From an uncultured Bacillota bacterium (GTDB taxonomy: Bacteria > Bacillota_I > Bacilli_A > RF39 > UBA660), in NCBI GenBank assembly GCA_958428295.1, contig CAUAFL010000007.1, positions 2,250-66,249 on the forward strand: a stretch of DNA of 64,000 nt. Reading direction: 5' to 3'. A program made the position numbers and the translations under genes. The notes below the pieces were generated by a model that saw only the letters and a program-made list of their open reading frames with translations, had not been told where the DNA came from and did no database searches. Every line of letters starts with the position of its first letter. The stretch's first letter is position 1. Of the stretch, positions 14,134-64,000 are shown piece by piece.

Positions 14134-17100
14134 ATGTTACTATATTTACTATATGAGAACAAATTATCTACTTTTCTCTTGCCTAAAAATATTTCTGGTA
14201 ACTATATTGTATCTGATTATGATCATTTAGGCAGCAAAAGAAATATTATAAATATTGAAGAACGAAACGGTATCTGGCAAATTTGTAGTAACTACGATAA
14301 TAAGTTAATTTATAAAAAAGAATACTTGGATACTGCTGAATTGAAATTATTTGAATTCTACCAAATTCAGTTATATACAGGCGAAATGCTGTTAATTTAT
14401 GTAGCAGAAGCTTATGCCAATACCATTATTCAAAAACAAATGCTAGATAATAGCACTATCATAATTGGTAATATGGATGAGTGTGATATTAAATATGCAG
14501 GCTTTAATAATTTAAACCAATTACAAATAGAATATAAAAACCACCAATATTATATAACCAATATAAATCCTACTATGAATCTGTATGTAAATCGTCTAAA
14601 AAAAGAAAAGACAATATTAAAAAATTTAGATACTATTTTTTGTATGGGGTTAAGGATAACAGTTTGCGGCTCTTCCTTATTTTTTATAGTACCTAAGCAA
14701 TCTCTACAAATTCTTTCCCATAAGTTTGAAGAAGTAACAAGTCAGTTAATTACTAAAGATTATCAGGCTTCTGCTGATATCTATAAAGATTTTTATGATG
14801 AAAAAGAATATTATGCAAAAGCACCTGTTTTCAAAAATAAATTAGAACCTTTAGAATTGACGATTGCAACCCCTCCTCCTAAGCAAGAACCTGAAAATGA
14901 ATCCGTAATGATGACAGTAATCCCTTCTTCATTAATGTGCATGACCTCTGTTATTATGGGGTATTTTGCTATTAAGAATTTTAACAATAAAGACGTAGAT
15001 ATGGAAACGAATATTTTATCACTTGTGATGTGCATTTCCATGTTGATGGCTTGTATATTGTGGCCTTTTGTCGAGCGAAACTATCAAAACCATCGGCTTG
15101 CTAAAAAAGAAAAAAAACGGCTTAAAACGTTTGAAAAATATTTACAAGAAAAAGAAATACTATTAAAAAAAGAAATAGAACAACAACGTTTAATTTTGCA
15201 AAATAACAACATTACGTTGAATGAATGTCAAAAAGCAATTCTTAACAGAACGCCTAATTTATTTTCGAGAAATATAGAACAAGAGGACTTTCTAACAGTA
15301 AGACTAGGGATTGGAACTGTTCCTTTAGCCTGTAATTTACAATATCATCGAGAAGAGTTTACCGAAAATGAAGATACATTACGTGATCAAATTGATAAAA
15401 TTGTGAATGAAAATAAAGAAGTATCTAATGTGCCTATCAGTTTATCCCTAACTGAACATAATGTAGTTGCCTTCTTGAGCGATAGTGTGGATAAAAAAGC
15501 TTACTTTGAAGCGATTTTATTACAATTAATTACCTTACAAAGTTATACAGATCTAAAGTTAATTATGCTGACAGATAGCTTAGGAGAAAATGAGCTTTCC
15601 TATATGAAACACCTAAATCATTGTTGGAGTAATGATAAAAGTATTCGCTTCTTTGCTACTACTTTTGAACAGGGACAAATACTTTCTAGTTATTTAGAAC
15701 GGGAATTAAATGATCGAACTAGCGAAAACACTCATAAGGATCAAAAATATGCCCCCTTTTATTTAATTTTGTCAGATAATATCAGTAGTTATCGTAATTT
15801 GAAAATAGTAAAAGATATTTTAAAAGAAAAAAAGCAAGTTGGATTTGGCTTATTAATTTTTGATACTAAAGTTTCTAATGTTCCTAATGAATGTGATCAA
15901 TTCATAAATTATAATAAAGAGCAAGCAGCTTATTTCTCCAATGTTATGGATAAAGACACGATTCTTTATTTTAAGCCAGAATTTATGGAGGCTACGTTAA
16001 ATATTTCTGAATGTTGCCGTATACTAGCTAATACCCCTGTTAAATTGGCTCTTGATGAGGCCAAACAGATTCCCAATAATGTGGGCTTTTTAGAAATGTA
16101 TGAAGTAGGCAATGTTGAACAATTAAATACGAAAGGCCGTTGGGAAATGTCAACGGTTACTACAAGTCTAGCTGCGCCTATTGGAATCGATGCCTTTGGT
16201 AATGTATTACTTCTTGATTTGCATGAGAAAAAGCATGGACCTCATGGTTTAGTGGCAGGAATGACGGGTTCTGGTAAAAGTGAATTTATTATTACCTATA
16301 TTCTCTCATTAGCAGTCAATTATCGTCCCACAGAAGTACAGTTTGTCTTAATTGATTATAAAGGGGGCGGTTTAGCGGGTGCTTTTGAAAACCGTAAAAC
16401 GGGTGTTAAACTTCCCCACTTAGTAGGAACGATAACGAATTTAGATAAGGCCTCTATGAATCGTTCATTAGTATCCATTAATAGTGAATTACAACGAAGA
16501 CAACGACTCTTTAATGAAACGAAAGAACAATTAAATATTGGTACTATTGATATTTATAAATATCAAAAATTATATCGTGAAAATACCATTACTACTCCTT
16601 TATCTCATCTATTTATTATTTGTGATGAATTTGCCGAATTAAAAGATCAACAACCGGAGTTTATGGACCAGTTGATTTCAACAGCACGAATTGGACGAAG
16701 TTTAGGAATTCATCTAATTTTAGCTACACAGAAACCAACGGGTGTCGTTGATGATCAAATTTGGAGTAATAGTAAGTTTAAAATCTGTTGTAAGGTGCAA
16801 ACGGAAGAGGATAGTAAAGAAATGATTAATCGTCCGGATGCTGCCTACATTAAAGAAATCGGTCGTTTTTTTCTCCAGGTAGGCTATGATGAATACTTCG
16901 TGGAAGGACAGTCAGCTTATACTGGTAGACCATATATTCCAACGAATAAAGTAAAATCAAAAGTAGATAATAGTATCAATTTTGTAAATACAACTGGAGA
17001 GATAATGAAAACGGTCGAAGACTTAGAAGAAAATAAGGCCAATAATAACACTTATGGAGAGGAATTAAAAAATATTTTAGAGTATCTTATTAAAATCGCC

Positions 17101-18690
17101 TCTAGTCAAAATTTTCAGTATCAGCAATTATGGCTTGAAAATATTCCTCCTAAAATTTATATTGAAGATATCCGTAAAAAGTATCCATCAGAACCTAAAA
17201 GGAATATATTAAATCCAATGATCGGTGAGTATGATGATCCTGCCCACCAAACACAAGGTGTAGTGACCTTACCGATTACTGAGGGTGGTAATTGCTTTAT
17301 TGCAGGAATGACGGGCAGTGGAAAAACCACGCTGTTAAAAACATTAATCTACTCTATTATGGTAACGCACCGCAGTGATGAAGTGAATATCTATGTTATA
17401 GATTTAGGATTGGAGGCACTAAAACAATTTGAGCGTGCACCTCAAGTAGGGGAAGTATTGACCGTAGCAGAAGAAGAAAAAATAAAACGCTTATTCAAAA
17501 TATTAGAGAATGAAGCAGAACAACGAAAAAAAATATTATCTAAAACAGGTGGTACTTATCAGAGCTATTGTCAGGAGGGGAATCTTCCCAATATAGTTAT
17601 AATGATTAACGGAATTGAAGTTTTTAAAGAGGTTTTTGATGAACTTTACGAAGAAACCTTTATTAATCTCACAAGAGATTGTAACAAATATGGAATAACT
17701 TTTATTGTTACCAGCACGAGTTCTACGGGATTAGGATACCGAGCTGAAAATAATTTTCCACAAAAAATTGGGCTTCGCTTACTAGATCAGGACGAATACT
17801 ATAACTTATTTCCAAGAAATGACGTTTTAATTACCCAAACACCAGGACGTGGTCTGATAAACTTAGAAGGAATTTATGAGTTTCAAACTGCCTTACTATT
17901 TACTGAGGAGACCCTAGAAACAAACCTGGATTATATTTTTAATGAGTTACAGAAAGTTTTAAAAAAGGTAAAACCAATACCTACAATGCCTAGCATAGTA
18001 ACTGCTAGTTCACTTTTAAAAAACAATCTTGCTTTAAATTATTTTCCAATAGGGAAAAATATAGAAACGGTCAGTACTGTTTACTACAACTTTACTGAAC
18101 CACTAACTGTTATTAGTACGCTAGAAGAAGAAACGTACGTAAGTTTTACAGAGGCTTTTCTAACGATTGCCAAAAATTGCCCTCAAACGAAGATGATTAT
18201 TTTAGATGGCCTCAAATTAATTACCAATCCAAAAGATGACAAAATAAAGTACTATGATGCTAACTTTAAACCGCTAATGAAGTATTTAAAAGAAATGATT
18301 CCTACGATTGCCGATCGGAAGGATCAAACTTATGCTATTGTGGTGATGGGGTACCAGAAGATTGCACAACACTTAGAAAAACTAAAGGAAGAAAGTTTAG
18401 ACGAAGAAGTTGTAACTTTGGATGACATTATAGAATTAGCACAAACAACGACTAATTTCAAGTTTATTTTTCTTGATTTATATGCCTCTTTAAAAAGTAT
18501 TAAAAAGAAATCATGGTATTCGCTTATGAAACGAAATTCTGGAATTTGGTTAGGCAGTGGATTTGAAGATCAAACTCTTATAAACGCTAAGCATAAAGAT
18601 CGCTATTTCTCAGAAGAAGAAAATATTGCCTATGTGATAACGGAAGGAGAAGTGACATTAATGAAACCAATACAAGGAGGAGATAGATGA
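14134..18690 (+). CDS. essC: Type VII secretion (T7SSb) FtsK/SpoIIIE-family ATPase EssC/YukB-like
   Basis: 1518 aa. N-terminal FHA-like region, two TM helices, then tandem FtsK-type ATPase modules with Walker A GMTGSGKSEF and GMTGSGKTTL. The third module has no recognisable P-loop. Confidence 0.88.
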   Translation: MLLYLLYENKLSTFLLPKNISGNYIVSDYDHLGSKRNIINIEERNGIWQICSNYDNKLIYKKEYLDTAELKLFEFYQIQLYTGEMLLIYVAEAYANTIIQKQMLDNSTIIIGNMDECDIKYAGFNNLNQLQIEYKNHQYYITNINPTMNLYVNRLKKEKTILKNLDTIFCMGLRITVCGSSLFFIVPKQSLQILSHKFEEVTSQLITKDYQASADIYKDFYDEKEYYAKAPVFKNKLEPLELTIATPPPKQEPENESVMMTVIPSSLMCMTSVIMGYFAIKNFNNKDVDMETNILSLVMCISMLMACILWPFVERNYQNHRLAKKEKKRLKTFEKYLQEKEILLKKEIEQQRLILQNNNITLNECQKAILNRTPNLFSRNIEQEDFLTVRLGIGTVPLACNLQYHREEFTENEDTLRDQIDKIVNENKEVSNVPISLSLTEHNVVAFLSDSVDKKAYFEAILLQLITLQSYTDLKLIMLTDSLGENELSYMKHLNHCWSNDKSIRFFATTFEQGQILSSYLERELNDRTSENTHKDQKYAPFYLILSDNISSYRNLKIVKDILKEKKQVGFGLLIFDTKVSNVPNECDQFINYNKEQAAYFSNVMDKDTILYFKPEFMEATLNISECCRILANTPVKLALDEAKQIPNNVGFLEMYEVGNVEQLNTKGRWEMSTVTTSLAAPIGIDAFGNVLLLDLHEKKHGPHGLVAGMTGSGKSEFIITYILSLAVNYRPTEVQFVLIDYKGGGLAGAFENRKTGVKLPHLVGTITNLDKASMNRSLVSINSELQRRQRLFNETKEQLNIGTIDIYKYQKLYRENTITTPLSHLFIICDEFAELKDQQPEFMDQLISTARIGRSLGIHLILATQKPTGVVDDQIWSNSKFKICCKVQTEEDSKEMINRPDAAYIKEIGRFFLQVGYDEYFVEGQSAYTGRPYIPTNKVKSKVDNSINFVNTTGEIMKTVEDLEENKANNNTYGEELKNILEYLIKIASSQNFQYQQLWLENIPPKIYIEDIRKKYPSEPKRNILNPMIGEYDDPAHQTQGVVTLPITEGGNCFIAGMTGSGKTTLLKTLIYSIMVTHRSDEVNIYVIDLGLEALKQFERAPQVGEVLTVAEEEKIKRLFKILENEAEQRKKILSKTGGTYQSYCQEGNLPNIVIMINGIEVFKEVFDELYEETFINLTRDCNKYGITFIVTSTSSTGLGYRAENNFPQKIGLRLLDQDEYYNLFPRNDVLITQTPGRGLINLEGIYEFQTALLFTEETLETNLDYIFNELQKVLKKVKPIPTMPSIVTASSLLKNNLALNYFPIGKNIETVSTVYYNFTEPLTVISTLEEETYVSFTEAFLTIAKNCPQTKMIILDGLKLITNPKDDKIKYYDANFKPLMKYLKEMIPTIADRKDQTYAIVVMGYQKIAQHLEKLKEESLDEEVVTLDDIIELAQTTTNFKFIFLDLYASLKSIKKKSWYSLMKRNSGIWLGSGFEDQTLINAKHKDRYFSEEENIAYVITEGEVTLMKPIQGGDR

Positions 18691-58209: not shown

Positions 58210-59034
58210 ATGAGTGTGAAAAAGTATGATTATGAATCACTATCAACGAATGAACAACTTATTTATAGCCTAGAAAAGGCTCGAGAATGTTTGCAAGATG
58301 GCCGAATTAATTTAGCTTTTAAAATTTTACAAGATGTTTCTTTAGACTTAGAAACTAATAATAACTTATTATTAGAACTATCACAAACTTTACTTGCATC
58401 CAAGCAATTGGAATTAGCAATTACTTTATTGGAAAAGGGGAATCTTCAGAATATAAAGGTCTTCAGTAGTCTTTGTATCCTATATGTACGTTTAAAACAA
58501 GAACATAAACTATATAAACTCTACAACAATATCGAACCTAAAAACTTTTATCCACAAGATGGGAAACGATATTATAATGAAGTTAAAAATTATTTAGCTA
58601 AAACCCATTCTGATATTGTGGCTTTTCCTCACAATTACTATGAACAAATGCTTGCTAATTATCGTGAAAGTGCCGCACTTAATCATATTAAAGAGCGGCA
58701 TGCGAAAGATAATGGCAACTTTCGAAAGAAGAATACGAGTTGTTTTGTAGCTAATATTGATATAGAAGGAACCTTCTATTATTTGAAAAAAACAATTAAA
58801 GCAGGCAGTGATCAGACGATTTGTCATGAACATTTTTCAGATACTTATATTTATGAAAGCTTAGATTGCGGGTTAAATCATAATTATAAAAAATGTGATT
58901 ATTTAAAAGTAGTGACCTTACCTAATACAAATAAAATAGTAACCATGTTTCCTCTAGATGAGGGGCATGTTGACTCTTCTTCCAAAGTCAAACTTTCAAT
59001 AAAAAGAAAAGGCAACTATTTGCACAACCGTTAA
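58210..59034 (+). CDS. Hypothetical protein (274 aa): helical repeat N-terminal half, Cys/His-containing C-terminal half
   Basis: Long ORF with an RBS (AGAGAGG). The N-terminal half looks TPR-like and helical. The C-terminal half contains NHIKERHAKD. No confident family assignment. Confidence 0.5.
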   Translation: MSVKKYDYESLSTNEQLIYSLEKARECLQDGRINLAFKILQDVSLDLETNNNLLLELSQTLLASKQLELAITLLEKGNLQNIKVFSSLCILYVRLKQEHKLYKLYNNIEPKNFYPQDGKRYYNEVKNYLAKTHSDIVAFPHNYYEQMLANYRESAALNHIKERHAKDNGNFRKKNTSCFVANIDIEGTFYYLKKTIKAGSDQTICHEHFSDTYIYESLDCGLNHNYKKCDYLKVVTLPNTNKIVTMFPLDEGHVDSSSKVKLSIKRKGNYLHNR

Positions 59035-59077: not shown

Positions 59078-59290
59078 AGTTTTAAATGCTGTTATAGTAG
59101 TAAAAAAGAATGCCTTTTAAGAGAGTTTGTGGTCGGTGCGAGCAAATATAGCTTCTTTTTGAACTTAATAACAAGAAAGCATTTACGGAAAAGCATCCGT
59201 TATCATCAATAAAAGCTGCATAGCACTGCTATGAAGTAAGGTGGTACCGCGAATCGCTAAATTCGTCCTTATGGAGAATTTAGTTTTTTT
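59078..59290 (+). promoter_or_regulatory. T-box riboswitch (leader), Leu specifier
   Basis: Stem I elements AGAGAG...GGTCGGTGCGAGC. Specifier-loop GAA-CTT-A with CTT (Leu) at 59164..59166. T-box sequence AAGGTGGTACCGCG at about 59238..59251. Terminator CTAAATTC...GAATTTAG plus T7 at 59257..59290. Confidence 0.85.
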
Positions 59291-59304: not shown

Positions 59305-59661
59305 ATGGAAACACAAATATTCGTCTTTATTTTAACATTTTTGTTTGTTTTTTTAATCTATGAAATCTTTTTAGTTAGGAAATGTAAAAAGGATAAAAAA
59401 CGAAAGAAACCAATAGAAGTTCAATATCTTATTAACCGTTATCATCTATCCTTACAGCATCTTAATTATAAACAATTATTAAACGTAGTAAGTATTGTTA
59501 GTGCCTTTGACATTGCTCTAGTGGTAACAGCTATTTCTATTCTAAAAAATTTCTATTTGCAATTAGCAGTAGGCTTTGTCTTAATTTTTGCACTTATCTT
59601 AGTAAGTTATGCAATCGTAGGTCATATTTATCAACAGAAAGGACGGAAAAAAAATGTATAA
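59305..59661 (+). CDS. Small polytopic membrane protein (118 aa), first gene of the T-box-controlled operon
   Basis: GGAGGAG RBS and three predicted TM helices with a KKDKKRKK loop. The 3' end overlaps the leuS start by 8 nt. Confidence 0.6.
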
Positions 59662-62470
59662 TTTTAAAAAAATAGAAAAAAAATGGAGAAGTTATTGGGA
59701 AGAAAATAAAACTTTCGAAACAAATGTATGGGATTTTAGTAAGCCAAAATACTATGTCTTAGATATGTTTCCTTATCCTTCAGGAGTTGGACTTCATGCT
59801 GGTCATATTGAAGGATATACAGCAACAGATATTATCTCACGCATGAAACGGATGCAAGGCTATAATGTTCTTCATCCAATGGGGTATGACTCTTTTGGTT
59901 TACCGGCTGAACAATATGCAGTAAATACGGGAAATCACCCTAATGGTTTTACCCAAGAAAATATAAAAACGTTTACTAATCAATTAAAATCCGTAGGCTT
60001 TGATTACGATTGGAGCAAAATGGTACAGACAAGTGATCCTAATTTTTATAAATGGACCCAATGGATATTTAAACAATTATACTTAGATGGTTATGCCAAG
60101 TATATTGATATGCCTGTCAATTGGTGTGAAGAATTAGGAACAGTTCTTTCTAATGATGAAATCATTGACGGTAAAAGTGAACGTGGTGGCTATCCTGTGA
60201 TTAGAAAAAATATGAAACAGTGGATTATTGATCAGGCTGCTTTTGCTGAAAAATTATTAGCAGGATTAGAGGAAATTGATTGGCCAGAATCAACAAAAGA
60301 AATGCAACGTAATTGGATTGGAAAATCAGTTGGAGCTAAGGTAACATTTCAAATAAAAGACTTCGATGAATCGTTTACAGTTTTTACTACTCGATGTGAT
60401 ACTTTATTTGGAGCTACCTATTGTGTGATGGCACCAGAACATCCACTAGTCAATAAAATTACTAGTCTTAACCAAAAAGAAGCAGTCATCGCTTATCAAC
60501 AGGAATGTGCTAAAAAAAGTGATTTGGAAAGAACAGAATTAAATAAAGAAAAAACAGGCGTTTTTACAGGAGCTTATGCTATTAATCCAGTGAATCAACA
60601 AGCTATTCCTATTTATATTTCAGACTATGTTTTAGCAAGTTATGGAACAGGGGCAATTATGGCAGTACCAGCGCATGATGATCGAGATTATCAATTTGCT
60701 AAGAAATTTTCTATTCCAATTGTTCAAGTTTTAGAAGAAGTAACCGGTACTCCACAACAACAAGAAAAAAACAAACAATCTATTGTAGCTATCGTTCATG
60801 ACCCTAAAACAGATCGCTATCTGACTATTAATTGGAAAGAAAAAGGTGGCCGTTTGTTTGTTGGTGGAACAAGAAAAGAAGGTGAAAGCGCCTCTTCTTG
60901 TGCACTAAGAGAAATCGCTGAGGAAACTGGGTATACGGATCTCAATTTAATAGCAGAGGATTTTAAAATTAGACACCATTACTATGCTTATAATAAAGAT
61001 CAATATTTTAGCATTGAAGCAACACCACTCTTGTTTGAATTAAAAAGCGACCAACAACAAGCTCAGGCTTTAGATGAGGATGAAGATTTTGAAGTAGAGT
61101 GGGTTTCTAAAGAAATTATTGAAAAAGAAATAATAGATGCTCTCCATCAGAAAGCTTTTGCCTATGTATTAAATCCCAATGCTATGTGCGGCGATGGCAT
61201 TCACATTAATTCCGATTTTTTAAACGGTCTAAATAAGGAACAAGCAATTAATAAAATGCTAGATTGGTTAGAAACTCATCATTGTGGTCATAAAGAAATA
61301 AATTATCGTCTTAGAGAATGGATTTTTGCCCGACAACGTTATTGGGGAGAACCAGTACCAATTGTTTATCTAGAAGATGGCCAAATTCATGTTTTAAGTG
61401 ATGCAGAGCTTCCCTTGATTTTACCAGAACTAAAGGATTATAAAGGTCACCATGGCAAAGCTCCTCTAGAAAATGCTACAAGTTGGAAACAATATCAGCA
61501 TCAAGGATTAACAGGTGTACGGGAGACATCTACAATGCCAGGTTCAGCGGGATCTTCTTGGTATTATCTTCGCTATATTGATCCTCATAATCAGGAAATG
61601 TTTGCCAATCCCCAATTACTAAAGCACTGGATGCCAGTAGATCTTTATATTGGTGGACCAGAGCATACAGTAGGACATTTATTATATTCTCGTATTTGGA
61701 ATCACTATCTTTATGACAAAGGTTTATCACCAGTAAAAGAACCCTTTAAAAAATTGGTTCACCAAGGAATGATTTTAGGTGCAAATGGCATAAAAATGGG
61801 AAAACGCTATCCTGAATTTACTGTCGATCCTCTAGAAATCGTTGAAACCTATGGTGCTGATACACTTAGACTATATGAAATGTTTATGGGTCCTTTAGAG
61901 GCTTCTAAACCATGGAGTCCACAAGGGGTATTAGGTGCCTTTAAATTTTTAGATAGAGTGTATCGGTTATATACTACTTTCCCAATTATTGAGGAAGAAA
62001 TTCCTAATTTACAGAAGACTTATCATCAGACTGTCAAGAAAGTAACTACTGATTTTGAAAAATTAAGTTTTAATACGGCCATTAGTCAAATGATGATCTT
62101 TGTCAATGCCGTTTATAAAGAAGCAAAACTTCCTAAAATCTATGCAGATGGTTTTCTCCAACTATTAAATCCTATCGCACCGCATATCACTGAAGAACTA
62201 TGGCATACTGTGTTAAGGCACACGGAAACGATCGCTTACAGTCAGTGGCCAACCTATGAAGAGGGCTATTTAGTAGAATCTGAAAAAGTGATTGCCGTAC
62301 AAGTAAATGGAAAAGTGCGAGCAACAATTACTGTTAATCAAAATGACACTGATGACATCATTAAACAAAAAGCTTTACAGGAGACTAATGTCAAAAAACA
62401 TACAGCCGACAAGGAAATTGTTAAAGTGATTGTTATTAAAGGAAAAATTGTTAACATTGTTATTCACTAA
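59654..62470 (+). CDS. leuS: Leucyl-tRNA synthetase carrying an internal Nudix-hydrolase-like insertion
   Basis: HIGH-type motif (HAGHIEGY), CP1/editing T-rich region ([12 protein letters not shown]), [33 protein letters not shown], and a KMSKS-equivalent KMGKR. It is 938 aa, with about 151 extra residues (nt 60734..61186) containing the Nudix box [23 protein letters not shown]. Confidence 0.93.
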
Positions 62471-62565: not shown

Positions 62566-64000
62566 TTAAAAACGACAACCTGCTGCTTCATCAGCCCAAA
62601 CAATACTGGCATTACCACTCCAACCTGATGAATAAGTTTTACTGGCACAGCTTCCTTTTACTGTGATTATTTGACTACTACTCCAATTGGTGAATGCCAC
62701 CCCCGGAATATTTGTCCAACTACTTCCTAATTCAATAGAAGTTAGCTTAGGGCAATTTTGAAACATCTTGGTTATTTTAGTCAATTTTGAAGTATTAAAA
62801 TGGCTAACATCGAGTTGCGGCAAACTACTACAACCATTAAACATAAAAGACATATCTGTCACATTAGAGGTATTAAAGTTGCTAACATTTAAACTAGTTA
62901 AACTAGAACAGTTTGTAAACATATATACCATGTCAACTACATTAGAGGTATTAAAATTAGATAGATCTAAGCTTTTAATACTAGAACAATCTCCAAACAT
63001 ATTAGCCATATCTGTTACATTAGAAGTATCAAAACTACTAACATTTAATGTCAATAAGCTAGAGCATCCCAGAAATATAGCAGACATATCTTTTACATGA
63101 GCGGTGTTAAAACTTTGTAAATTAATCATTGTTAAGGATTCGCAATTAGCAAACATAGTAGACATATTTATTACTTTAGAGGTATTAAATTTACTAACAT
63201 CTAAATTTACTAAAGCATAACAGCTATCAAACATACTCTGCATAGTAGTAACATTTGCTGTATCAAACTTACTAACATCTAAATTCACTAATACTTCACA
63301 GTCATAAAACATATTTGACATATCCTCTACTTTAGAAGTATTAAATGAACTAATGTCTAAAGCTGTTAAATAGTAACAACCACTAAACATAGATGACATT
63401 TTTGTCACATTTGAGGTATCAAGGTTTTTTAAATTAATACTCGTTACTGCTGTAAATCCAGAAAACAGGTAACTACTATCACTATTTGCAACAATTTTCC
63501 CTTTGCCTCCCAAGGTTAATTTATAAGTACCAGCACCTTGTCCATCATCTTCCAAATAGGCAATAACATTCTTATCACCAGCTTCGGATACATCCCAATT
63601 TATGATTGCATTATTAGGTACCAAAGTATCCGTTTTAGTTGTAATACTTGTTATATTTCTTTTATACTTACTAGCATGATAATCTTCTGAAGAGTCCTCC
63701 ATATAAGCCTTCATCACGGAACTACTATGGTTAGCTACTTTTCCATAAACATTAATTCTTGTTTTATATATTAAACCGCCACCATCACCCTGTGGATTAT
63801 AATTTTCGTCTACCCATAATCTTAATCGATAATTAGTTGTCTGACTTATATCACTACTCCCCGTTAGTAAACTCATCATCGAAGCAGGTCTTCCTGTATC
63901 AGTATTTGCAGTGCTATCCTCCAAATAAGTTTTAGGGCTCATCATTTCTGTTTCTATATTTTGATGAATTTGTGTTAAATAATATTTAACATTACTTCCA
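62566..64000 (-). CDS. BspA-type leucine-rich-repeat (DUF285-like) surface protein, N-terminus beyond window
   Basis: The reading frame stays open upstream of the track's Met to nt 64000 (...GSNVKYYLTQIHQNIETEMMSPK...). Nine tandem 26-aa repeats follow the pattern LDVSxFNTSNVTDMSxMFxxCSSLxx. Confidence 0.8.
   Translation of the reverse strand, partial: GSNVKYYLTQIHQNIETEMMSPKTYLEDSTANTDTGRPASMMSLLTGSSDISQTTNYRLRLWVDENYNPQGDGGGLIYKTRINVYGKVANHSSSVMKAYMEDSSEDYHASKYKRNITSITTKTDTLVPNNAIINWDVSEAGDKNVIAYLEDDGQGAGTYKLTLGGKGKIVANSDSSYLFSGFTAVTSINLKNLDTSNVTKMSSMFSGCYYLTALDISSFNTSKVEDMSNMFYDCEVLVNLDVSKFDTANVTTMQSMFDSCYALVNLDVSKFNTSKVINMSTMFANCESLTMINLQSFNTAHVKDMSAIFLGCSSLLTLNVSSFDTSNVTDMANMFGDCSSIKSLDLSNFNTSNVVDMVYMFTNCSSLTSLNVSNFNTSNVTDMSFMFNGCSSLPQLDVSHFNTSKLTKITKMFQNCPKLTSIELGSSWTNIPGVAFTNWSSSQIITVKGSCASKTYSSGWSGNASIVWADEAAGCRF
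62737..63438 (-). repeat. Nine tandem 78-nt coding repeats (26-aa LRR units)
   Basis: 78-nt periodicity is seen directly: for example, aacatctaaatt recurs at 63196 and 63274. The repeats are in frame with the LRR ORF. Confidence 0.85.

Follow-up and report, generated by a model that had tools for sequence, protein, structure and literature searches.

The window analysed here, a stretch of 64,000 nucleotides (nt) from an uncultured Bacillota bacterium (GTDB lineage Bacteria; Bacillota_I; Bacilli_A; RF39; UBA660; GenBank assembly GCA_958428295.1, contig CAUAFL010000007.1, positions 2,250 to 66,249 of the forward strand), contains a leuS gene for leucyl-tRNA synthetase (LeuRS) within whose CP1 editing domain a complete Nudix domain is nested. 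All positions given below are counted from the first letter of the window. The gene is the open reading frame (ORF) at 59654..62470 on the + strand, which the ORF list of the 64-kb window gives as 938 amino acids (aa) in an uninterrupted frame, as a preliminary description of this DNA had stated. Its product scored 980.4 bits against the model TIGR00396 (leuS_bact; cut-off 548.4), which identifies it as a bacterial-type LeuRS, and its backbone, referred to below as class 1, is marked by the motifs HAGH and KMGKR and lacks both the zinc-knuckle cysteines and the leucine-specific domain. The catalytic core, the CP1 editing site, the anticodon-binding domain and the C-terminal domain were all present. 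A full-length AlphaFold2 (AF2) model matched solved LeuRS structures with TM-scores of 0.79-0.82 normalised by the target, and on superposition the insert was absent from every solved LeuRS structure that the model matched.

Conservation was assessed in 120 protein clusters and 65 species sequences, the origin of which is given below. The HIGH motif of the window's LeuRS, H48-A-G50-H51, was invariant in both sets, and none of the 185 sequences departs from the editing residues T245, T246, R247, D249, T250, D342 and D345. At the KMSKS motif the window's protein has K714-M-G-K717-R (61793-61807). Both lysines are invariant; class 1 has other residues in place of the two serines, which are canonical in a second backbone class, and KMGKR was found in 114 of the 120 clusters (the window's class 1 backbone). 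Upstream of leuS and of a small gene preceding it, orf118, lies a T-box leader at 59084..59273 (+), which matched Rfam RF00230 (E 2e-22; 97 bits, gathering score 93). In the alignment the specifier position is taken by CUU, a leucine codon (GAA-CUU-A), so that leuS would be regulated by tRNA-Leu. The invariant editing residues, HIGH motif and KMSKS lysines, together with the leucine T-box, indicate that the host LeuRS is in all likelihood a functional housekeeping enzyme.

The extra segment comprises residues 361-511 (60734..61186, + strand; 151 aa), with a folded core at about 372-506, and its translation was identical to that quoted in the preliminary description. The Pfam NUDIX model PF00293 (gathering score 21.1) matched the insert alone with 45.6 bits (E 8.9e-12) and the full protein with 41.1 bits. 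The 23-residue Nudix box, at 60866..60934 (+), reads G405-x5-E411-x7-R419-E420-I421-A-E423-E424-T-G426-Y427, letter-perfect as had been claimed and well outside what chance would produce, and is followed at 60974..60997 (+) by an X-loop motif, HHYYAYNK (residues 441-448), whose Y443 and Y444 are the 16th and 17th residues after the box. Modelled alone by AF2 from a 32-sequence alignment, the insert reached a predicted local distance difference test (pLDDT) score of 90.6 and a predicted TM-score of 0.84, with the box on a helix (insert residues 53-65). In the full-length model (71-sequence alignment; mean pLDDT 81.8) residues 371-510 scored 85-95, above much of the synthetase core. A Foldseek search of the PDB with the insert model returned solely Nudix hydrolases, many of them at a probability of 1.00. 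The best was 2azw (TM 0.78/0.80), and further matches included RppH, NudI, NUDT15 and Ap4A/Ap6A hydrolases. Identity was 15-21% throughout, which leaves the fold certain and the substrate class not. No curated NCBIfam or Nudix subfamily threshold was reached by the insert: the RppH models NF001938 and NF001936 gave 15-17 bits against cut-offs of 116-118, and the lupin Ap4A hydrolase 1f3y an E-value of 0.25.

The box residues G405, E411, R419, E420, E423, E424 and G426 were each kept in 117-120 of the 120 clusters, and a strict Nudix box was found in 64 of the 65 species sequences. The X-loop residues H441, H442, Y443, Y444, N447 and K448 were retained by 117-120 clusters and by every one of the 65 species sequences, Y444 being invariant and Y443 present in 117 clusters, and E477, E482 and W483 were likewise conserved. 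Profile, box and predicted alpha/beta/alpha sandwich thus agree with membership of the Nudix superfamily on every count. Together with the conservation, they bear out the earlier proposal of a complete Nudix fold with intact catalytic residues grafted onto a LeuRS surface loop.

The position of the graft had been given as following the editing domain, at the junction of CP1 and the catalytic core, and this proved to be wrong. When aligned with the LeuRS of Thermus thermophilus (1h3n), residues 2-367 of the window's protein correspond to Thermus residues 4-368 and residues 514-709 to 380-579, so that about 146 residues take the place of a loop of about 11 residues (Thermus 368-380). As CP1 spans residues 224-417 of the Thermus enzyme, the replaced loop lies inside CP1, some 40 residues before its C-terminal hinge. 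The N-terminal part of CP1 (60329..60733, +; residues ~226-360) carries the threonine-rich motif TTRCDT (245-250) and AHDDRD (340-345) and matched the Pfam editing-domain model PF13603 with 213 bits over model positions 1-153, the 185-position model being interrupted at about position 153. The C-terminal part (61187..61288, +; residues 512 to ~545) aligns from Thermus residue 380 on and consists, in the model, of a GDGIHINS hairpin and a helix ahead of the NYRLREW hinge; in all, about 40 CP1 residues (512 to ~555) separate the insert from the point at which the chain re-enters the catalytic core. Compared with the CP1 domain of Streptococcus pneumoniae LeuRS (4k47), the window's CP1 scored 220 bits. 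The linker residues E361, T364 and G365 and, at the C-terminal end of the insert, A510-M511 are conserved.

A whole-protein search of NCBI, ENA, JGI and Logan assemblies yielded at least 120 clusters as best matches (67-100% identity; 919-1105 aa), with PF00293 present in all but one. GTDB genomes, one for each species, were scanned as well and gave 300 confirmed candidates, the best 80 of which align over the whole 227-residue query with 64-75% identity. These 80 are metagenome-assembled genomes of gut Bacilli or 'Mycoplasmatota' that have not been cultured, among them Ca. Onthousia, Ca. Faecimonas, Ca. Onthocola and Clostridium sp. CAG:451, and the insert is accordingly present in at least 80 GTDB species genomes. 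Public records label proteins with the insert merely as 'leucine--tRNA ligase'. From the species loci we took 64 intact leuS genes of 935-943 codons, which fall into two backbone classes, class 1 (n = 34, including the window's type) and class 2 (n = 30). The ratio of non-synonymous to synonymous substitution rates (omega) was estimated by the Nei-Gojobori method from within-class pairs only, with dS of 0.05-0.8, since pooling the two classes inflated dN. It was 0.13 (class 1) and 0.10 (class 2) for the Nudix domain, 0.08 and 0.06 for CP1 and about 0.05 for the synthetase body. The junctions of the insert, VQVL/EEVTG and NPNAM/C, show a uniform GC content of 0.33-0.35, and the +1 residue varies across the clade. 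No intein residues (Cys/Ser/Thr at the N-terminal junction, His-Asn plus Cys/Ser/Thr at the C-terminal one) were found at these junctions, and a search for junction repeats gave only short AT-rich matches at noise level, nothing there pointing to a mobile DNA element or an intein. The frame is intact in hundreds of independent assemblies from the four sources. We conclude that the Nudix domain inside CP1 is almost certainly genuine and under selection.

Comparison of the two classes suggested that CP1 and the Nudix domain together (60329..61288, +; residues ~226-545) have an evolutionary history distinct from that of the synthetase body. For the body, identity was 0.78-0.79 within a class and 0.47 between classes; the corresponding values were 0.72-0.76 and 0.71 for CP1, and 0.68-0.69 and 0.67 for the Nudix domain. 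In a 30-aa sliding window, class 2 proteins were as similar to the window's protein as class 1 proteins only in the region ~226-545, while elsewhere they were about 45% identical against about 80% for class 1. The breakpoints in similarity, at ~226 and ~545-555, coincide with the conserved hinge strands of CP1, NWIGKS and NYRLR(D/E)W. The class 2 body carries a canonical KMSKS and intact zinc-knuckle cysteines (CPTC...CERC, CPKC...CPKC); in the class 1 backbone of the window these cysteines, expected around 60110-60200, are lost. Neither class has the leucine-specific domain. The class 1 body scored 594 bits against Mycoplasma mobile LeuRS and 676 against that of Thermus, compared with 503 and 720 for class 2. 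Class 2 scores higher on the Neisseria enzyme as well, and class 1 is relatively nearer to M. mobile LeuRS. The S. pneumoniae CP1 was matched alike by the CP1 of both classes (220 and 215 bits for classes 1 and 2).

Both classes occupy the same locus. The 118-aa predicted membrane protein encoded by orf118 (59305..59661, +), for which no family match was found in Pfam or PADLOC, lies between the T-box and leuS, its stop codon overlapping the leuS start; in 26 loci of class 1 and 20 of class 2 orf118 immediately precedes leuS, with a mean identity of ~42-44%. One locus of each class (L004 for class 1, L066 for class 2) also carries upstream rpoA and rplQ genes 85% and 83% identical to those of the window. 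The two classes were interleaved in the neighbour-joining tree built for the cassette, requiring five parsimony changes in comparison with one for the body. A mosaic, in which a CP1+Nudix cassette is common to two LeuRS backbones only ~47% identical, is thus probable on these sequence comparisons. In the simplest reading, the backbone would have been replaced around a CP1+Nudix cassette of Bacilli type, which was either kept or transplanted through recombination at the hinges of CP1. The single insertion into one gene envisaged previously is correct as far as the graft itself is concerned and incomplete in its history, given a cassette shared by two backbones and a Nudix lineage that is also nested elsewhere.

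In order to place this lineage, the insert alone was searched by exhaustive phmmer against 1.84 billion representative proteins, giving 250 hits at E <= 0.001. Its matches were mapped against the two LeuRS halves and scanned with Pfam and NCBIfam. This search was used in place of a word-index search of a 5.8-billion-protein database with the insert alone, which had returned only 8 fragments. The closest relatives were mostly embedded too, at five sites in LeuRS and in isoleucyl-tRNA synthetase (IleRS), RNase PH and an M17 peptidase. The LeuRS sites are that of the window, one a hairpin later, one at the N-terminal junction of core and CP1 (~206-242) and two in the second half of the catalytic domain, and a single LeuRS may contain up to three Nudix copies (P0128, P0124). 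Tandem copies were also found within the window's clade, in three proteins of 1102-1105 aa (P0032, P0060, P0063), with a general-type copy at the window's site and a window-type copy (56-60% identical) after GIHINS. Among the other hosts, P0156 is a true IleRS of 1345 aa (TIGR00392, 775 bits; L084 3001-7038) with NUDIX at 270-396 and His_Phos_1 at 665-809. P0221 is a 519-aa RNase PH (L082 4001-5560) with the Nudix domain and ~150 extra, unassigned residues between its two Pfam domains, encoded by an intact gene in a chromosomal context and represented by six cluster members. P0178 is a 1318-aa M17 aminopeptidase with GNAT, NUDIX and GNAT domains.

Two subtypes could be distinguished within the lineage, a canonical one (GG.E.GE...REI.EETGY with AAHK..NR) and one that we call Q-type (GG.E.GQ[TS].EE.A..EI.EETGY with HVPK..NR), which is without the first glutamate and the arginine of the box. 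Q-type sequences occur in P0124, P0128, P0139, P0141, P0134, P0150 and P0177 and in the free-standing proteins P0151, P0164, P0200 and P0260. In LeuRS proteins with several copies a Q-type copy is usually found together with a canonical one, and the N-junction tandems of P0128 and P0124 consist of one of each. The Q-type copy may be either a pseudo-enzyme that acts as a partner or an enzyme whose chemistry has changed.

Five free-standing relatives were examined in their genomic context, and two of them adjoin class I synthetase genes. The closest, P0137 (43% identical), is encoded between tsaD and valS (tsaD-nudix-valS), its gene stopping 5 nt short of valS; the possibility that it was a leuS fragment was rejected because the DNA shows a separate gene. 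P0158 is encoded between argS and an ileS that carries a nested His_Phos domain, on three independent contigs (L085-L087; L085 4594-7498), and this arrangement, a free-standing Nudix gene beside a His_Phos-only ileS, looks like a pre-fusion state. P0173 and P0164 lie beside other Nudix genes, UDG and transporters and not beside synthetases, and the contig of the fifth was too short to inform. A further candidate, P0273, was rejected as a free-standing Nudix protein, being a piece of a frameshifted leuS in a poor assembly. In GCA_009741595.1 (L081 2897-6173) about ten short ORFs stand in place of a single leuS+Nudix gene, probably owing to frameshift errors of a low-quality assembly; 'free-standing Nudix' matches in databases can thus be fragments. 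As read from protein sequences and gene order, the lineage is repeatedly nested in, or encoded beside, class I synthetases, the neighbourhood part of this statement resting on five cases.

On the basis of these results we tentatively propose an explanation to which, taken as a whole, we give slightly less than an even chance. The window would encode a T-box-regulated housekeeping LeuRS with an autonomous, apparently competent Nudix pyrophosphohydrolase nested in a CP1 surface loop. CP1 and the Nudix domain would have been kept as a cassette and, via recombination at the hinge strands, exchanged between two highly divergent backbones in a single group of uncultured gut Bacilli, and the Nudix domain would hydrolyse a nucleoside-diphosphate-X compound tied to synthetase chemistry. 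The likeliest substrates would be dinucleoside polyphosphates of the diadenosine tetraphosphate (Ap4A) or Ap3A type, or Np4-type caps, formed when ATP or another nucleotide attacks the enzyme-bound aminoacyl-adenylate, and nesting in the mobile CP1 would hold the Nudix domain next to the source of its substrate.

The choice of substrate draws on motifs outside the box. In a published summary (PMC5389931, citing Dunn et al. 1999 for the tyrosine), an X-loop tyrosine ~16-18 residues after the box is reported to coincide with ApnA hydrolase activity, a proline ~15-16 residues after the box to mark ADPRases and an SQPWPFPQS array to mark NADH pyrophosphatases. The insert has Y443 and Y444 at +16 and +17. 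The ADPRase proline is missing, positions +14 to +18 being H-H-Y-Y-A, and the SQPWPFPQS array is not present anywhere in the insert, so that Ap4A-type dinucleotides and Np4 caps lead as candidates. The tyrosine pair weakly favours Ap4A-type dinucleotides, as a correlate that is not diagnostic and does not establish membership of an ApnA subgroup. The fold neighbours also include Ap4A/Ap6A hydrolases and RppH, the latter with Ap4A bound as well in 7sp3. The tyrosine pair and this fold resemblance lend slight support to the earlier suggestion that the domain might clear Ap4A or aminoacyl-adenylates in cis. An Ap4A-type substrate in particular is possible on these sequence features, and we think it more doubtful than the explanation as a whole.

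Several observations weigh against the proposed explanation. The fold matches, at their low identity, cover many substrate classes (MutT-like, NudI, NUDT15, RppH and ApnA hydrolases). LeuRS is a weak producer of Ap4A in comparison with LysRS or PheRS, and two further hosts of this Nudix lineage, RNase PH and an M17 aminopeptidase, make no Ap4A. The box has lost at least one of its residues in 7 of the 120 clusters (for instance REVLAETG and IHEIKEETG), P0041 being heavily degenerate, and Q-type copies recur in more distant lineages, which implies that catalysis is not universally required. Lastly, the cassette phylogeny is a neighbour-joining distance tree without support values.

A more specific version of the proposal would make the Nudix lineage a dedicated partner of enzymes that act on the tRNA acceptor end. 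The domain would work in cis from the mobile CP1 on a pyrophosphate product or lesion located at the acceptor end or in the active site, for which Ap4A/Np4N from the adenylate and a 3'-pyrophosphorylated or capped tRNA end are candidates. The cassette would then be a transferable, selected proofreading-plus-clean-up unit, moved between unrelated backbones because the combination of CP1 and Nudix is itself selected. We regard this version as unlikely.

Of the alternatives, the one that survives best is that the domain is a general sanitiser of the nucleotide pool (similar to MutT, NudI or an NTP pyrophosphatase) without chemical link to leucylation. In this case gut Bacilli with small genomes would nest small enzymes in loops of essential, highly expressed proteins, and the nested copy would be the cell's copy. 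Such hitch-hiking would account for the heterogeneity of the hosts (LeuRS, IleRS, RNase PH and M17 peptidase) and for the similar nesting of unrelated small enzymes, namely His_Phos_1 in IleRS and GNAT in the M17 peptidase, and an NCBIfam exception model already exists for IleRS with a nested GNAT domain (NF040702). It also agrees with the top fold match being a MutT/nudix protein (2azw), with the high rank of NudI and NUDT15, and with the surroundings of P0173 and P0164. The pairing of Nudix with a histidine phosphatase moreover recalls mycobacterial MutT1 (a weak NF052459 match and the fold match 5ggc). However, a general sanitiser leaves unexplained the independent insertion at five LeuRS positions, the location of two of the five free-standing relatives beside class I synthetase genes and the retention of CP1 and Nudix as a unit through a backbone swap. 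We consider it an improbable alternative, if a serious one.

The domain might instead be non-catalytic, serving as a nucleotide sensor or as a structural or docking element that modulates the movement of CP1, with hydrolysis irrelevant. The seven clusters that have lost box residues still keep the domain, and Q-type copies are widespread and conserved, occurring together with a canonical copy in multi-copy arrays in the manner of a pseudo-dimer. The conserved residues E361, T364, G365 and A510-M511 likewise suggest a fixed orientation on CP1. Within the window's clade, however, at least 97.5% of the clusters and 64 of the 65 species retain the metal-binding residues, which would be unexpected without catalysis at an omega of ~0.1, and we judge this explanation to be quite improbable.

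Another possibility is a pyrophosphohydrolase acting on tRNA or RNA ends, which would remove a 3'-pyrophosphate of the kind added by toxSAS enzymes (FaRel2/CapRel type), or a nucleotide cap, and restore a chargeable tRNA in cis. Pyrophosphorylation of the tRNA CCA end by toxSAS is established (PMC11559606; 10.1101/2021.04.30.441581). Three of the hosts, LeuRS through its CP1, IleRS and RNase PH, handle tRNA 3' ends; the histidine phosphatase paired with Nudix in the IleRS P0156 could presumably take off the remaining 3'-phosphate; the free-standing P0137 lies between valS and tsaD, a tRNA modification gene; and there is a weak sequence or fold affinity to the RNA-end Nudix enzymes RppH, YtkD and Dcp2/g5R. 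This proposal is nevertheless purely inferential, and no Nudix enzyme known to act on 3'-pyrophosphorylated tRNA was found in the literature searched. The window offers no toxSAS or other defence context, a PADLOC scan having given only a weak generic Nudix match (17.6 bits) that lends no support to a defence system, and the M17 peptidase does not fit as a host. We consider it very improbable. Finally, an assembly chimera, a pseudogene or an intein-like selfish insert, for which nothing speaks beyond the odd architecture and the single fragment P0273 in a frameshifted leuS, is effectively refuted by the intact frame across independent assemblies, the even junction composition, the purifying selection and the lack of intein residues or of repeats above AT-rich noise.

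Elsewhere in the window, a Pfam scan of ten further ORFs, mostly the larger ones, revealed no other protein with a nested domain. Upstream of leuS, a 274-aa ORF at 58210-59034 (+) had no family match and is poorly conserved, being 28-32% identical to its counterparts in two loci of close relatives. Downstream, 62566-63945 (-) encodes a leucine-rich-repeat protein of the DUF285/BspA type, which is typical of Mycoplasma-like genomes. Amid housekeeping genes at 14134-18690 (+) lies a gene for a 1518-aa protein with FtsK/SpoIIIE ATPase domains, possibly EssC-like, with an extra P-loop region for which an NB-ARC match was barely above threshold and AAA and STAND matches were below it.

Aminoacyl-tRNA synthetases are among the best-studied enzymes, and the bacterial ones are usually seen as architecturally conservative, with extra catalytic domains mostly eukaryotic. 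In many uncultured species of gut Bacilli an essential synthetase houses, within its proofreading domain, a second enzyme that is apparently active. Should the Nudix activity be linked to leucylation or to editing, for instance through clearance of Ap4A-type by-products or repair of tRNA ends, it would add a new layer of quality control, and the debated link between synthetases and dinucleotide alarmones would become directly testable in one polypeptide. A cassette shared by backbones 47% identical would be a clear natural case of domain-level recombination in an essential gene, and indicates that the CP1 hinges tolerate the swapping of modules, which would be useful for engineering. The nesting of Nudix, GNAT and histidine phosphatase domains in IleRS, RNase PH and M17 peptidase further suggests a lineage-wide mode of protein evolution hidden by annotation labels.

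No synthetase-Nudix fusion was found described in the literature searched, in line with the preliminary description, to which no described LeuRS of this architecture was known. A term search of the 2017 review of the Nudix clan found neither 'tRNA synthetase' nor 'aminoacyl' in the text it covered, and no curated NCBIfam model was matched for a LeuRS+Nudix combination. The insert resembles free-standing hydrolases of the MutT, RppH and Ap4A-Ap6A kinds (2azw; Escherichia coli RppH 4s2x/7sp3; T. thermophilus Ndx1 1vc8; Aquifex aeolicus Ap4A hydrolase 3i7u) in its fold (TM 0.63-0.80), in its full GX5EX7REUXEEXGU box and in the aromatic X-loop residue ~17 positions after the box. Unlike these enzymes, to which it is 15-21% identical, it is nested in a LeuRS CP1 loop and has lineage-specific invariant motifs, one of 13 residues and ExxxxEW. 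The window's protein shares its core, editing site, anticodon-binding and C-terminal domains with canonical LeuRS (1h3n; Escherichia coli 4aq7/4arc) and with M. mobile LeuRS (3ziu), which is likewise without the leucine-specific domain (PMC3643597). It differs from canonical LeuRS in the ~146 residues of Nudix domain that replace the Thermus 368-380 loop and, in class 1, in KMGKR and the absence of zinc-knuckle cysteines. Mycobacterial MutT1 (5ggc) joins a Nudix domain to a histidine phosphatase, a pairing that recurs in the IleRS P0156 and, as a His_Phos domain nested in ileS, beside the gene for P0158. MutT1, however, is a stand-alone protein of two domains, whereas in the IleRS relatives the domains are nested separately and the window's LeuRS has Nudix only. 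An architectural parallel with a curated model is NF040702 (IleRS, N-acetyltransferase domain-containing), also a class Ia editing synthetase with a small-enzyme domain inside its polypeptide, which differs in host (IleRS) and guest (GNAT) and against which the window's protein scored 57 bits (cut-off 1999). Annotation therefore already recognises, for IleRS with GNAT, the nesting of an accessory enzyme in a class Ia synthetase, and LeuRS with Nudix is present in databases though undescribed; what is unexpected is that two backbones have one CP1+Nudix cassette in common and that a single Nudix lineage is nested repeatedly, at many sites.

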